This document shows, one piece after another, positions 6,251-12,058 of a DNA stretch of 15,147 nt. Source of the stretch: Calditrichia bacterium (GTDB lineage: Bacteria; Calditrichota; Calditrichia; RBG-13-44-9); the NCBI GenBank assembly GCA_037381445.1, contig JARRQT010000090.1, forward strand, positions 1 through 15,147. Reading direction: 5' to 3'. Positions within the stretch are counted from its first letter, which is position 1; each line of letters starts with the position of its first letter. The notes beneath the pieces are model-generated. The model saw only the letters and a program-made list of their open reading frames with translations, had not been told where the DNA came from and searched no databases. The translations under genes and the position numbers were made by a program.

Positions 6251-8347
6251 TTAACGTTTCAGATTCGTCACTTCAGAAAGCATCTCATCACTTGTGGTAA
6301 TAATCCTGGCATTTGCCTGGAATCCCCGCTGTGCGACAATCATTTTGGTAAACTCTTCCGCCATATCAACATTAGACTGCTCCAGAGCCCCGGCAATGAT
6401 ACTTGCGTTGATTCCTTCACCGGCTGTGCTGATAATCGGATCACCTGAATTGCCGGAAAGCGCGAACAGATTATCTTCAGTTCGCATCAAACCACCGGGA
6501 TTGTTGAAGCTGGCAAGAGCGAGCTGCCCAAGAACCTGCACCACGCCATTGGTGAATCCTCCGGTAATTCTGCCCGTTTGATCAATGGAGATTTGCTCCA
6601 GCGTACCCATTCCGTAACCATCCTGCGAGGTAACAAAGACCGAAGTGTTGGCGCCGGATAGCTGCGTAACACCATCAAAACCACCGTATTCACCCGGATT
6701 GATTTCGATGCTGACCACAGAATTACCGCCTGTCCCGGGATCTACCTGCAATGATGACGAACCGTCATCAAAACTGAATTCCCTCAGGGAACCGTCATCG
6801 TTGAATTCCACAAAACCGGTGCGGCCGCCCGTAACGGATGCCGGTTCCGGTACCTGGGCTTCCCAAATCCAGCGGTTGGGTTGGGTCACATCCTTGGTAT
6901 AAATCAAGGTCAGGTCGATGGGATTTCCCAGCGAGTCGTATGCCGTGATGCTGGAAGACTGTTTGACATCCTCTGCCTTTTGCAGTTCGCTGTAGTGTCC
7001 GGGAGTAGAATCGAAAATTCCGTTGAAAGTGGTGCGTGCAACGCCGGCGCCGTCCTCTGCCCGGATATCCAGTGCACTCAGTTCATAGATTTCCCCACCA
7101 TCAGCATGGATCCGTAGCCCACCGTCATTGGAATCGATTTCCACACCATCGGAGTTTGTCAGACCGAACGAAGCCTCTATCTGAGAGGCAAAATCCTGAT
7201 AGGTACTGGTCCCGGTAACAGTGAACGCATAAGGCGTTATTGCATCTCCGCCCTTCAAACCATTGATGGTAATCGCATCATTAGCATTCAATCCAAGAGA
7301 TTGCCCGTTTTCATCGCGCAGATTCACCAGAAGATCGTCAGCCTGCGCTTTATGAGAAAACTCATCGGTAAGATGCGAGGTACCGGCCGCCAGGGTATCG
7401 GTTCCGCCATGCAAGGCATTTTGTAAAATCGGATTGTTACTGGTCAGCGTAACATCTATATTTCCTGCACTGCCGTTCGTAAACTGCAAAGCTCCTCCGC
7501 CACTGAAAGAGACCGTCAGGTTCGAACCTGCAAAATCAGAATTAATTTCATCAATCAGATCCTGAAGCGTATGGAAAGCCCCATTTCCAACAACGCCGTT
7601 ATCCTCTGCCACATATTTGTAATTTCTGGTAACATCACCCGTACCATCGTTGACGGTGATACCGATTTCAGTGGAATTCGGTATCATACCTGTGATTTTA
7701 TTGTTTGCCATGCCGGTGGCCAGCAACCCGTTAATATCCGAATCGCCCATTTCAACCGCATAGACAGAATCAGTTTTCAGGATATTGCCCTGCGGAAGTG
7801 CGCTGGCATCCAGGTTCCCGGCGAGTGTGATGCTGCTGGTTGCCCGGGCCGGCTGCTTTTTACCGAATGGCAGCACGATATCTGTCAGGCGGCTTCCCGC
7901 CTCGATGACGCCTTCCGAATTCGCCAGATAACCCTGCACCTTTACGCCGCTTCCCGGCATGATGAGTGCACCATTGGCATCAAACTGGAAATTTCCGGCC
8001 CGCGTATAATGGCGGATATTCCCGTCCCTGACCACGAAGAATCCATCTCCCTGGATGGCTAAGTCGGTGGTCTGTCCGGTGGTTTCGATATTTCCCTGTC
8101 CGAATAGCGTGTCGATTGTGGACAGCGACATTCCTAATCCGACCTGCATGGGATTCGTCCCGCCCACATTTGCCAGCGGCTGGGTGGTTCCCCTTAATGT
8201 CTGGGCAAATGTCTCGCTGAAGGAGACGCGGCCCGCTTTAAATCCAATAGTATTTGCATTTGAAAGATTGTTTCCAATTACGTCCATCATTACCTGATGG
8301 TTTCGTAAGCCTGAGACACCTGCATACAATGAACGCATCAAACCCAT
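6251..8347 (-). CDS. flgE: Flagellar hook protein FlgE (long form, 698 aa)
   Basis: N-terminal SLYAGVSGL...DVIGNNLSNANTIGFK, DLAIQGDGFF, YTRAGNF and GNLD; C-terminal LEQSNVDMAEEFTKMIVAQRGFQANARIITTSDEML. SD AGGAGGA 6 nt upstream. Confidence 0.97.
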   Translation of the reverse strand: MGLMRSLYAGVSGLRNHQVMMDVIGNNLSNANTIGFKAGRVSFSETFAQTLRGTTQPLANVGGTNPMQVGLGMSLSTIDTLFGQGNIETTGQTTDLAIQGDGFFVVRDGNIRHYTRAGNFQFDANGALIMPGSGVKVQGYLANSEGVIEAGSRLTDIVLPFGKKQPARATSSITLAGNLDASALPQGNILKTDSVYAVEMGDSDINGLLATGMANNKITGMIPNSTEIGITVNDGTGDVTRNYKYVAEDNGVVGNGAFHTLQDLIDEINSDFAGSNLTVSFSGGGALQFTNGSAGNIDVTLTSNNPILQNALHGGTDTLAAGTSHLTDEFSHKAQADDLLVNLRDENGQSLGLNANDAITINGLKGGDAITPYAFTVTGTSTYQDFASQIEASFGLTNSDGVEIDSNDGGLRIHADGGEIYELSALDIRAEDGAGVARTTFNGIFDSTPGHYSELQKAEDVKQSSSITAYDSLGNPIDLTLIYTKDVTQPNRWIWEAQVPEPASVTGGRTGFVEFNDDGSLREFSFDDGSSSLQVDPGTGGNSVVSIEINPGEYGGFDGVTQLSGANTSVFVTSQDGYGMGTLEQISIDQTGRITGGFTNGVVQVLGQLALASFNNPGGLMRTEDNLFALSGNSGDPIISTAGEGINASIIAGALEQSNVDMAEEFTKMIVAQRGFQANARIITTSDEMLSEVTNLKR

Positions 8348-8386
8348 GATACATCCTCCTTGACATTTTTTCGTCCTTGTTTATGC

Positions 8387-8468
8387 GTCCCGCATCAGTC
8401 GGTCAGCGGGACCTCAGGGCTTCCTTCGGTTGTTTTTTGGAAAGGTTACAACAGGAAGGTCCAGCCCT
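8387..8468 (-). ncRNA. Candidate cis-acting structured RNA (two hairpins) in the flgE leader
   Basis: Minus strand: AGGGCU-gga-CCUUC-cu-GUUGU-[14-nt loop]-ACAAC-c-GAAGG-a-AGCCCU, then gag, then GUCCCGC-[UGACCGACUGAU]-GCGGGAC. Pairing read by eye; no U-tract follows. Confidence 0.6.
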
Positions 8469-8478
8469 TTTAAATTAG

Positions 8479-8877
8479 TCATTCTACAACAACTGCCGAA
8501 TCAATATTCGTAAAGACATTTTGCTTCATCGTGTCATTGTCAATGGCCGTAACCACGGTGCGGTTATCCAGGTTGACAATGAAAGCCACATCCGGCATCA
8601 GGATCAGAGAATCGTGACCACCCTTTCCCTGTGCCATGTTTATGGCGTTGGCCAGTTTTTCCATGCTCTCTGCGTTGAGCTCGATATTACGGCTATGAAG
8701 CCGGGTCTGCGCATGAGCGGAGAATTTTATTCTCTTTTCATCCGCCATCTTATCCAGCAATATTTTGCTGAACTCGGACTCTCCGGCAGAGGGCAGGTCA
8801 GGTTTTCGTGATGGTATTCCTCCGAGGCCACCGATGGGTATAAACGGGGGTTTCATACCATCAATCTTACCCGGCAT
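8479..8877 (-). CDS. TIGR02530-type 'flagellar operon protein', function unknown
   Basis: Motifs IKFSAHAQTRLHSRNI, KGGHDSLIL, AFIVNLDNRTVVTA and NVFTNIDSAV; sits between flgD and flgE. ATG 8877 is preferred because the track's GTG at 8886 lies inside the SD AGGAGGTG. Confidence 0.88.
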   Translation of the reverse strand: MPGKIDGMKPPFIPIGGLGGIPSRKPDLPSAGESEFSKILLDKMADEKRIKFSAHAQTRLHSRNIELNAESMEKLANAINMAQGKGGHDSLILMPDVAFIVNLDNRTVVTAIDNDTMKQNVFTNIDSAVVVE

Positions 8878-8912
8878 TTCAATCACCTCCTTTCAGCCTA
8901 TTCATAAAAGAT

Positions 8913-9593
8913 TTAACTATTCGTAATTTCATATACATCCGACATTTGAATTTCCAGATCGCCCAGCATTAATACGGCGCCGTTATTCCCATACCTCACA
9001 CCTGTGATGGTACCACAAACGTAGCTCTGGGTGGATACCGCGTTTCCGTCAGCATCGGTCGCAGTCACCCGGTAATGGTAATTTCCGTTGGGAAGTGTGA
9101 TTCCGACATTATCTTCGCCGTCCCAGAGAATCGATTGATCGCCTTTTGAAAGGTTATCCAGATTGATGGTACGCTTCACCTGATCATTTTCATCCAGAAT
9201 CTCAATTTTCACGTTCTTGGCATCGTTGCCCAGATCAAAATTCAGATAGGCTTGCTTGCTGTCGCCCAAATGAATCTGATTGCCATATGCCTTCACATCG
9301 TGTCCTATTACCGTGGACGCCATCGTATTATTGATTGAAGTAGTAAGCAGGTAGTTGGCATCGAGACTCTGCTGCAGCGATTTATCGATATTCTGCAGCT
9401 CTTCCACACTGCTGAACTGCGCCAACTGAGTTGAGAATTCTGTGCCTTCCATGGGATTCAGCGGATCCTGATAATGGAGCTGCGTGACCAGCAATTTCAG
9501 GAAATCATCTTTCCCCAGAATATTTTTTGCAGTCGCGGAACCCATATTTAATCCTAATCCCTGAACAGACATGTCCGTTGAAACATCGCTCAT
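8913..9593 (-). CDS. flgD: Flagellar hook capping protein FlgD
   Basis: LGKDDFLKLLVTQLHYQDPLNPM...QLAQFSSVE; FlgD Ig-like domain (WDGEDNVG...PNGNY); SD AGGAGGTG. Confidence 0.97.
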   Translation of the reverse strand: MSDVSTDMSVQGLGLNMGSATAKNILGKDDFLKLLVTQLHYQDPLNPMEGTEFSTQLAQFSSVEELQNIDKSLQQSLDANYLLTTSINNTMASTVIGHDVKAYGNQIHLGDSKQAYLNFDLGNDAKNVKIEILDENDQVKRTINLDNLSKGDQSILWDGEDNVGITLPNGNYHYRVTATDADGNAVSTQSYVCGTITGVRYGNNGAVLMLGDLEIQMSDVYEITNS

Positions 9594-9608: not shown

Positions 9609-12058
9609 TTACGCAATATATTCAAATGTGCTGTTTGTAAGATTTAGCCTGTGCGGCATTTTTATATTATAATTCTCTTTGGTTTCGGTGCTGCTACCAA
9701 AATGCTGACGATATTTCCCCTGTCCGCTGGCGGTATAATGCGCGCTATTCTGTGACTGCTGGTCGGGACCGCCATTCATCAATTCGAATTCAAGATTAGA
9801 CAGATTTATATCCAACTGCTGCAGGCGCTGGGTTAATTCCTGGGTATGCTTCAGCAAAAGCTGATGAACTTCCTGCGAATTAACCTCCACCCGGCCGGAG
9901 AGATGATCATTTTCCATCTTCAGGCGGATTTTTATCAGGCCCAGATTCTCCGGGCGCAGCTGAACGGTCATTTCCTGCTTATTATTGCTCACCGCGAACT
10001 GGAACTGTTTTGCCACAGCGTTAATAAATTCAGTCGGATTTGTATTCGTAAAAATTCCCGGAAAATTTTGGTGAATGCTGAAAGAACCGTTTAACGCGGT
10101 CTTTCCAACCTGCACATGCCCCGGCATTTGAAAGCGGGAGACATCCTTTCCCGAGTTTTCACTCCATTTACTTTCTTCTCCGGAATTTTGTGGGTTACTA
10201 TTTACCGTGAATTGTTCCTCCTCGGCAGCAACCGAAATGGAGGAAGAAGCAGATTCATGAACCATTGCATCGCTCTTCCGCGACGACTGGTGTATAGAGG
10301 CGGCGCCAGCCGAGGCCTTCTCAGAATGTGAAATATTTTGGCTGGTTCCTGCCGGGTGTGATTCAGAATGATTTACATTTTCATTTGCTGCCTTGATTGG
10401 ATTTTCCGAACCGCTCAAACCTACGGATGCATGTTTACTGTGAGAAGCACCGGGTACAGTTCGATTGGCAGCATGCCGGTCCACCGGCTGGACGCTGGCG
10501 GTTGTATTCTCAACCGACGATTTCGGAGAAGCTGGTTGAGAAGAAAATTCTACTTTTGGCTGGTTGTTGTCATTTCCGGATTTTTCAGAGATATGCGGCT
10601 GCGTCTGAGAATCTAAAGTCGCCTTACCATCAGAAACAGAAAATTTTAACCTGGCTGAATCGAATGAATTAACCAATGAAACACGGTCGGAATTAGGCTC
10701 CACCCCTTGGCTATGCTGAAAAACCAGATTCGAAGCATTTTTGAATAGGATATCATTGGCATGCTGTTTTCCTGCCGAAAGGCCGCTTTCTTTACTATTC
10801 ATCTCAAGAAACGCCTGCTCTCTTGCGGTAGCAGAACCGTCGTCTGATGGCAGCAGATCCTGCTCCGTGAAAAATAAGACAGCATTTGCTGAAGTACCTT
10901 TTTCCGCAAAATGAGTATACACATCGTCATTCAGGGCCTGATGAGAATTTTGAATTTTCGAAGCACTATCCTGCACCCTGGAAATGTTCCCATCGGCTGA
11001 GTTTGGCGATGCGCCGACGTTAAAATTCTTCTGCGAGCCCGCAGAATCTATCAGGATATTTCCTTCAGAAAAGATTTCCCCTTCAGGCGCATTTTTTAAA
11101 GTACTTTCCCTGCCAATGGCAGAGATTTTTTCGTTGCTGTTATTTCCTGAATTCAGCAATGTGGTCTGATTTGCGGACCCTGAGTCGATTACCCCTTTCG
11201 GCGAAGCGGATTGGCGGGAAAAAATCCTCAAGGGATTTTCGTTGCCGGATTCAACATCTTGAGCGACAACTTGATTCTGAGTTGTGGTGATTGTCTCTTT
11301 CGTCTGTGGACCGCTATTCCCGATTGTTGCTTCAGCCTGAGAATTCAGGGGCAAACTGCTTGTTTGGCTTGCATTTTCTGCCGGAGATAAGTTAGTTGGA
11401 CTGCTCATGGAAGCATACTTCTCGCTCGAAATTCCGGAAAATTGTTGATTGTTCAACAATTTTTCATGTCCGTCTGCCGAAGCGAGTGAGATGGATAGAG
11501 TCTGGTTATCCGGATTTGCTGCTGCCATTACCAGGCTGATGACGGGAATTCCCTGGGGATTTTTACCGGTGAGTGTGAGCGAGGGCGGAAAATCGGATAT
11601 CTCTTCTTTCGCTGAAGGACTTCCACCGGTCCGGATTTTTCGAGATTTTTTCAATCCGCTGGCTTTCCCGGCACTCCAGTCCAGTTGGGATAAAATCAGC
11701 AGAGAGGCGTTATCGCCCTCTTCGGCAGGAGCAGTTTTGTTGTTGGCAGTTTCCTGAGAATACTGCTTCAAAACTTCCGGATTAATCTCAATTTTTAGGC
11801 TGTAGGACTGCGGAATGATCTTCCCATCTCTGGAAACAGCGATGATGATCTGCGCTGGATTTCTGGAAACGTCCGCTTCTTTGCCGGAGACACTCTGCTT
11901 CAGAGCGGAATCTATGGCGGTTTGCAGTTGCCCCAAAAAGGCCCCATTCCTGTAGCGGAATTACCTGATTTCATGCCCGGAAGATCTGCAAATCCCGGAT
12001 TTCCCGGAACGGATTTTTCCTGGGATCCAAAGAAGTTATTTAATGTCAAAGCGAACAT
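9609..12058 (-). CDS. fliK: Flagellar hook-length control protein FliK (main ORF 9609-11936; probable true start 12058 with an apparent 1-nt frameshift near 11931-11945)
   Basis: Long Ser/Asn/Ala-rich low-complexity body and a C-terminal FliK_C/T3S4 domain (MTVQLRPENLGLIKIRL...L...L..L); upstream of flgD. A 48-aa ORF (12058-11912) in another frame joins the main ORF if one base is added. Confidence 0.85.

Follow-up and report, generated by a model that had tools for sequence, protein, structure and literature searches.

Genomic context of the TIGR02530 gene

The window, meaning the whole 15,147-nt stretch of Calditrichia bacterium DNA analysed here (contig JARRQT010000090.1, assembly GCA_037381445.1), carries on its minus strand a flagellar operon in the order fliK-flgD-TIGR02530-flgE-flbD and onward, as read from its open reading frames (ORFs) and their Pfam and NCBIfam profile matches. 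The TIGR02530 protein scores 112.1 bits against its family profile (TIGR02530, PF12611; curated cut-off 83.2), and its closest named homologues belong to Calditrichia. A preliminary description of this DNA had placed the gene between flgD and flgE, and the FlgD and FlgE Pfam domains of the neighbouring products confirm this. A GTG at 8886 falls inside the Shine-Dalgarno sequence (SD) of the gene, whose start was taken as the ATG at 8877. The spacer between its stop codon and flgE (8478-8348, minus strand, 131 nt) holds a two-hairpin RNA, formed by hairpins P1 and P2. In the direction of transcription, the features are:

8913..9593, minus strand: flgD, the hook cap gene and upstream cistron (ORF; Pfam FlgD, FlgD_ig and tudor domains)
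8479..8877, minus strand: TIGR02530 gene, 132 aa (ATG at 8877, stop TGA at 8481-8479; TIGR02530 profile)
8468-8387, minus strand: whole RNA element, 82 nt (spacer fold)
8416..8468, minus strand: P1, an outer stem, a 3x1 internal loop and an inner stem of variable length (RNAfold; conserved and covarying)
8460..8462, minus strand: unpaired GGA of the P1 internal loop, opposite A8422; putative cleavage or recognition site, by analogy to RegB
8387..8412, minus strand: P2, a 7-bp stem with a 12-nt loop of three NGAN units (RNAfold; conserved and covarying)
8374..8378, minus strand: extra AAGGA between P2 and the SD, a possible, lineage-specific CsrA site (ANGGA frequency in relatives)
8355..8361, minus strand: flgE SD, AAGGAGG, largely unpaired in the spacer fold
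6251..8347, minus strand: flgE, the hook gene and downstream cistron, 698 aa (Pfam/NCBIfam; ATG at 8347)

The FlgE of the window has about 290 residues (161-455) between its D1 and D2 Pfam matches to which no family could be confidently matched, and its FliK (9609-11936) is also long, at 775 aa.

Fold of the spacer RNA

The outer stem of P1 pairs AGGGCU (8468-8463) with AGCCCU (8421-8416), and its inner stem consists of CCUUC/GAAGG and then GUUGU/ACAAC; P2 pairs GUCCCGC (8412-8406) with GCGGGAC (8393-8387) around the loop UGACCGACUGAU (8405-8394). The RNAfold minimum free energy and centroid structures are both exactly P1 plus P2 (-37.8 kcal/mol, z -2.61; 3 of 200 shuffled sequences fold equally well), which reproduces on the minus strand the fold, coordinates and spacer length of the preliminary description. 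In the spacer of the window, this fold leaves the GGA of P1 fully unpaired between two stems and the SD free. The element had been said not to be a terminator and had not been recognised as a named Rfam family; both points stand, as the minus strand at the locus has no terminator-like site and no U-tract, and Rfam gave no match at the gathering score over the whole window, nor at E <= 10 over positions 8250-8600. The alternative helix GGACCU/AGGUCC, put forward as a possible switch, was rejected: its pair probability is about 0, it costs 10.9 kcal/mol here and it can form in 1 of 88 homologues. With a U5 tract after the element in 1 of 113 loci and an unpaired SD, the RNA lacks the structural marks looked for in a riboswitch or attenuator (a conserved alternative structure, a terminator or a helix that sequesters the SD).

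CsrA sites are A(N)GGA motifs in hairpin loops. The P1/P2 core has no such loop; an extra ANGGA stands before the SD in 14 of 18 close relatives versus 4 of 95 other loci, and among these relatives (L001-L022) a conserved CAAGGAY lies between P2 and the SD. The window genome carries two csrA genes, and a second, CsrA-based layer acting on flgE is possible in its lineage, judging from these motif frequencies.

Conservation and covariation

Two hairpins follow the TIGR02530 stop codon in all 22 loci from the order and class of the window. A protein-first search of species genomes gave 80 loci, the best 80 of at least 578 confirmed, with record titles from Negativicutes, Clostridia, Halanaerobiia, Geobacteraceae, Ignavibacteria/Kryptonia, Armatimonadota, Omnitrophota, Fibrobacteraceae, Bdellovibrionia and Solirubrobacterales; the RNA motif follows TIGR02530 in 80/80. 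Covariation of the hairpins across homologous loci, which the preliminary description had proposed as a check, was assessed on a selected set: from 129 distinct loci, a script requiring a paired P1 and the P2 loop pattern retained 97, of which 19 were removed by hand (near-duplicates, mis-anchored rows, shifted P2 register). The 78 remaining loci were aligned with MAFFT on sequence only. Changes on both sides were found in 13 of 14 pairs, none of 500 shuffles reached the observed scores and slid controls scored far lower. RNAalifold recovered P2 and missed P1 on this alignment, because the 3' arm of P1 is partly misregistered around a variable insert.

Since the 78 loci had been selected, the test was repeated on an independent metagenome set collected with a DNA pattern in which nothing was fixed beyond GGGC/GCCC, the loops and the innermost two pairs of P2, which returned at least 120 stretches, 112 of them distinct among the matches listed. 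The unconstrained P2 pairs form in 110, 110, 108, 101 and 75 of the 112 distinct sequences, the shuffle maxima for the same five pairs being 91, 65, 74, 60 and 54, and all four Watson-Crick types occur at most of these positions. A P1-only pattern was too loose for counting, with 41 matches in the window's own genome. Kinship inflates the counts, though a chance origin of the covariation is implausible given its spread over phyla. On the evidence of these alignments, the two-hairpin RNA is a real conserved, covarying structure across many bacterial phyla.

A covariance model built from the 78 loci finds all 80 named loci and, overall, 88 of the 89 sources; the one miss (L067) is itself a weak protein match. 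In the 88 homologues, the P1 loop invariably contains GG, followed by A (78), C (6) or U (4), and the base opposite is always a purine; nearly all rows having P2 keep the three GA steps of its loop. Four loci retain P1 and lack a canonical P2 (L094, L120, L130, L136), and five others have an intact P2 stem with a loop off the three-GA pattern, as natural loop variants (L108, L111, L145, L085, L117). Of 113 scored loci, 39 have a P1 that starts no more than 3 nt from the stop codon, and the distance from the end of P2 to the start codon ranges from 11 to 201 nt, with a median of about 30 nt. Where DNA has been inserted after the TIGR02530 stop codon, the motif stays with flgE: the inserts are a MITE-like inverted repeat of about 230 nt before P1 (L011), a tandem 7-mer hairpin (L022) and a gene (L240).

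Co-occurrence of the RNA and the TIGR02530 gene

Co-occurrence of motif and gene, likewise proposed beforehand as a check, was followed in three genome samples, which include kin and incomplete genomes, so that the negatives hold for the genomes searched. In the phylum of the window (86 genomes), TIGR02530 is matched in 50 genomes, once marginally, and the RNA in 49, with one copy each; these are the same 49 that have strong TIGR02530 matches, this comparison covering the gene and the RNA in each genome. A sample of 150 Bacillota contains FlgD in 120 genomes, TIGR02530 in 105 and the RNA in 104 (E <= 0.05), and 101 of the 105 gene-positive genomes match the RNA model; the four misses carry weaker copies directly after the stop codon (14.7-35.3 bits). 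No RNA match better than E 0.04 was found in the 15 FlgD-positive, gene-negative Bacillota, which include close kin; in 14 of them, flgD is directly followed by flgE, with a spacer often of at most 30 nt and no motif. Among 100 genomes from the phylum of a Geobacter genome (G087), FlgD is present in 59 and TIGR02530 in 5, and strong RNA matches occur in exactly these 5 genomes; three weak matches (E 0.003-0.02) are in unrelated DNA and have no P2 loop. Taken together, the 69 FlgD-positive genomes without the gene (15 Bacillota, 54 from the phylum of G087) gave no RNA match at E < 1e-3. The sole gene-negative genome with a strong copy (G116) has its flgE cut where a contig begins, which means that flgD and TIGR02530 would fall within a gap of the assembly. 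TIGR02530 was also matched in none of the 14 control genomes, including E. coli and B. subtilis. In the genomes compared, the RNA tracks TIGR02530 and not flagella in general. Its loss beside flgE could be a single deletion of adjacent parts.

Several individual records deserve mention. TIGR02530 is split over two frames at G136:C56:21442-21724 (frameshift or assembly error), with an intact adjoining RNA, and a TAA falls inside the TIGR02530 match of G035 (L014). TIGR02530 domains within long ORFs of 371 and 382 aa (G302:C9:461396-461677 and P0164) may be fusions. An entry filed as a gut phage (MT835480.1, L068) holds TIGR02530, a divergent motif and the start of flgE, and is probably bacterial chromosome. 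Searches for phage versions found none by protein in viral contigs and none by the RNA pattern, and tblastn did not recover the assignment of phage G gp136 to TIGR02530.

Copies at other flagellar genes

The preliminary description had presented the RNA as a leader between TIGR02530 and flgE; it is conserved there and is not confined to that place. Genomes carry from one to four copies, for example three in Sporomusa and two in Fuchsiella, whose extra copies lie in the flgF-flgG spacer and in a second flgD-flgE spacer without an intervening TIGR02530. A remote copy (E < 1e-3) was counted by eye in 41 of 105 gene-positive Bacillota, mostly in the flgF-flgG spacer. Of 41 extra loci that were fetched, 31 precede an FlgG-type start, one precedes FlgE and one a flagellin at 253 nt; two (L183, L209) lie behind flgF with no rod gene after them, four lie behind flgF with no downstream gene called by the script, and the remaining two are an unclear case and a weak chance match. 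The remote copies retain the P1-P2 structure in a model-fitted alignment. In two genomes where flgF and flgG are split, diverged copies stand both behind flgF and before the displaced flgG (L183/L184 in G188, L209/L210 in G122). The window's own flgF-flgG spacer has no copy. Among the 120 matches listed in the RNA-first metagenome scan with the DNA pattern, 88 were scored behind TIGR02530 (L240 wrongly) and 19 behind flgF, and 113 precede a match to a FlgE/FlgF/FlgG reference, with a few before FlgB-like genes (as in L322). Because the motif recurs before flgG, a second flgE, flgB-like genes and a flagellin, and also behind flgF and EF-hand genes, its distribution resembles that of a target site shared by a small regulon.

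Geobacteraceae have extra copies between tandem flgE genes and beside Ser-rich EF-hand proteins; in L225 and L365 the motif sits behind the EF-hand genes, whose similarity to XopAW-type secreted proteins is far below the cut-off. Ser/Gln-rich proteins adjoin motif copies at L365 1616-2497 (-), L225 1077-2516 (-), L381 1595-2484 (+), L311, L330 and L340; two of them have EF-hands and the sub-threshold XopAW similarity, and these neighbours are possibly unrecognised flagellar export substrates. A small ORF, labelled by eye as MerR-like helix-turn-helix, comes after the motif at L295 and L348; in L295 the next gene is flgB-like.

The flgF-flgG pairs of gene-negative genomes have no motif in 5/5 genomes checked. 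This loss of remote copies together with the gene, although correlative, is the best evidence that the protein may act on the RNA in trans.

Predicted fold of the TIGR02530 protein

TIGR02530 is a family of about 2,400 clusters at 50% identity, in which S53, H55, A56, R59, R63, K85, G86, T110, T123, I125 and D126 are nearly or fully invariant. S53, H55, A56 and T110 are identical in 212/212 locus proteins; in the family alignment, H55 is found in 143/144 members and T110 in 144/144. The AlphaFold2 model (pLDDT 86, pTM 0.65) has a strand-helix-helix-meander layout with helices 54-62 and 69-84 and strands 89-93, 97-102, 107-113 (which holds T110) and 127-130; an invariant F36 helix and a C-terminal FTNID segment lie outside the RelE core of the model. 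An exhaustive structural search returned, as its top 14, toxin-antitoxin toxins or Cami1, nine of them naming RelE, ParE, HigB or YafQ; the other five are presumably to be assigned to the same superfamily. The Z-scores of 4.5-5.6 are modest and below the tool's caution level of 8. Foldseek found no match at E <= 1e-3 in PDB or BFVD; a phage site-specific RNA endonuclease, which we take to be a RegB homologue, ranks fourth among viral models with a weak match (E 0.01, TM 0.38). PDB sequence searches gave nothing meaningful, and ESM Atlas gave only the TIGR02530 family itself. DUF4258 (PF14076) is weakly matched by 51 of 144 members at E <= 0.1 (best E 5e-4), below its gathering threshold, with no match for the window protein. 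Thus, of the RelE/DUF4258-like fold suggested in the preliminary description, the RelE-type ranking and the weak DUF4258 matches stand, and statistically strong structural matches were not obtained.

Features common to BECR ribonucleases, as described in the accessible text of Zhang et al. 2012 (PMC3482391), are a Ser/Thr in strand 4 and a helix at the N-terminus that often contains a His; H55 and T110 correspond to these residues, and the model fits the layout of N-terminal helices followed by a meander sheet, though at Z <= 5.6. DUF4258 is listed as a BECR family with unknown target in the available part of a survey (PMC11980606), which does not mention flagella. The TIGR02530 protein is thus predicted to have a RelE-like (BECR) ribonuclease fold. 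A comparison of protein and RNA variation found no residue that differed where the P2 loop was scored missing; it was noisy, the regular expression having mis-scored several loci.

Proposed mechanism and alternatives

We propose, with our judgement evenly divided, that TIGR02530 is a domesticated BECR ribonuclease that recognises the P1-P2 RNA and cuts the unpaired GGA of P1. Binding would involve both hairpins, with the three-GA loop of P2 presumably adding specificity, and the cut would fall in the P1 loop. Such a cut would leave the SD intact. The released flgE or flgG message would start with a 5'-OH and stand behind the P2 hairpin; the piece upstream, flgD-TIGR02530 or flgF, would gain a new 3' end and be exposed to decay. 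High-copy subunits (hook, distal rod) would then outlast their low-copy neighbours, and the nuclease would gain negative feedback on its own mRNA. In Salmonella, FlgE and FlgG are needed at about 120 and 25 copies, versus about 5 for FlgD and FlgF. Against cutting stand the modest fold match and the third P1-loop base, which is U or C in 10 of 88 homologues. Simple SD occlusion is hard to reconcile with copies located 3' of genes, which are awkward for the stoichiometry argument as well; five loci fit the logic of a downstream boost poorly, namely L183 and L209 behind flgF, L225 and L365 behind EF-hand genes, and L322 before flgB-like genes. Two RNA-seq runs covering a Geobacteraceae locus (L371) showed no ends or joints at depths too shallow for the purpose (215 and 102 reads), with one loose end of 4 reads at 1588. 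The broader proposal, to which we lean slightly less, is that a toxin-derived RelE-fold nuclease, domesticated for mRNA processing in flagellar assembly, and an RNA site copied before or behind the rod, hook or secreted-protein genes to be controlled form a compact, portable module, present in at least ten phyla and serving stoichiometry or export coupling.

The protein might instead bind without cutting and control flgE/flgG translation, by repression or activation, in a FliW-CsrA- or FlbT-like checkpoint for early substrates that unassembled rod/hook subunits perhaps relieve. We consider this rather unlikely, although the same co-occurrence data would follow from it and several features suit it: the three tandem GA units of the P2 loop resemble a multivalent protein site, P2 ends near the start codon (median about 30 nt, minimum 11 nt), the F36 helix and FTNID segment could mediate oligomers or partners, and the conserved His/Arg/Thr could serve binding alone. 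An SD left unsequestered by the conserved fold, a distance to the start codon that varies from 11 to 201 nt, the copies 3' of genes and the invariance of His55 and Thr110 at BECR active-site positions all speak against such a checkpoint. It is improbable that the RNA has another reader (CsrA, a ribosomal protein, a housekeeping RNase or a small ligand) and that TIGR02530 is merely co-inherited: the GGA in P1, the two csrA genes and the ANGGA before the SD in close relatives would suit CsrA, but the P1 GGA has CU/CC in front of it, not A-N, and also occurs as GGU/GGC, gene-negative genomes lack the remote flgG copies, the loci have no conserved expression platform (U-tract in 1/113, alternative helix in 1/88) and no Rfam family matches.

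Nearly all neighbours of the motif encode axial export substrates (FlgB, FlgE, FlgF, FlgG, flagellin), the others being the Ser-rich EF-hand proteins with sub-threshold XopAW similarity, and copies are found 5' of some genes and 3' of others, with one retained at each half of a split flgF/flgG. These facts would agree with an mRNA tag for flagellar export substrates, TIGR02530 being an adaptor that tethers messages to the export gate or couples translation to export. Most substrates (flgK, flgL, fliD, most flagellins) have no detectable copy, however, genomes in the phylum of the window as a rule have a single copy, and the XopAW similarity is far below the cut-off and may reflect EF-hands only; such a tag appears quite improbable. 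A pair akin to type III toxin-antitoxin systems, in which an RNA antitoxin neutralises the RelE-like nuclease, would explain why a toxin-like fold adjoins a structured RNA with no protein antitoxin gene alongside. Here, though, the RNA lies downstream, within a flagellar operon, and is single and not tandemly repeated, remote copies stand at rod genes, and the pair is vertically stable and essentially absent from the plasmids and phages searched, which makes this explanation highly improbable.

Through the proposed cleavage, a widespread flagellar gene that has long been uncharacterised acquires a concrete candidate substrate, and the 2012 speculation about a flagellar BECR RNase becomes a readily testable proposal. 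Known RNA-level control of flagella (CsrA/FliW, FlbT) concerns flagellin; if true, the proposal would extend post-transcriptional control to the stage of rod and hook in Clostridia, Negativicutes, Geobacteraceae, Ignavibacteria, Calditrichia and others. A site-specific RNase of 13 kDa with a 55-nt site could then also become a processing tool in hosts without TIGR02530.

Relation to known systems

CsrA-FliW acts post-transcriptionally on flagellin leaders. The present RNA resembles it as a candidate for post-transcriptional control of an axial subunit through a leader and differs in its hook and rod genes, in a core that is not an ANGGA hairpin loop and in its association with TIGR02530. Termite-flg (RF01729) is likewise a structured RNA upstream of flagellar genes; identity with it was rejected, as no match was found at the locus even at E <= 10 (a score of at least 40 bits having been set for identity), and its sequences, where given in PMC2864571, differ from the window RNA. 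Fremin and Bhatt 2021 (PMC8040213) list two candidate structured RNAs close to flgF/flgG, HMP2_12528 and HMP2_11826, of 38 and 52 nt, from Selenomonas and Oribacterium. In the accessible part of that work, they are single-genus models with no link to flgE or TIGR02530; compared by table description rather than by sequence, they may be fragments of the P1-P2 motif. The literature searched (texts and part of the supplements) held no description of the P1-P2 RNA, and mentioned TIGR02530 in one phage genome paper only. Judged by sequence and by these searches, the P1-P2 RNA is a new RNA family, and as such a new entry for Rfam.

With the RelE/ParE/HigB toxins and DUF4258, TIGR02530 shares a predicted fold and weak DUF4258 profile matches; it differs by an extra N-terminal helix, a C-terminal FTNID strand and its fixed place between flgD and flgE. 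Unlike a type II RelBE module, the gene has no adjacent antitoxin gene, its neighbours being flgD and flgE. A BECR-fold RNase consistently present in Firmicutes flagellar operons was noted by Zhang et al. 2012 (PMC3482391), who asked whether it was exported or processed flagellar RNA. Matched by description rather than by sequence, it is probably the TIGR02530 family; no RNA target is given for it in the accessible text, whereas TIGR02530 now has a candidate target RNA.

A close parallel is T4 RegB, which, in the available part of its description (PMC3014915), has a RelE/YoeB-like fold put to regulation rather than killing, controls its own mRNA, cuts by itself an unpaired GGA whose next base is constrained, and leaves a 5'-OH and a 2',3'-cyclic phosphate. 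The P1 GGA has the geometry of such a target. RegB, however, cuts many GGAG SD sites with the help of S1 and inactivates messages (PMC3014915), whereas the GG(A) of the present RNA belongs to a two-hairpin element of its own, which precedes an intact SD in a cellular housekeeping operon. TIGR02530 and the P1-P2 RNA are a probable dedicated protein-RNA module, akin to RegB-like regulatory processing.
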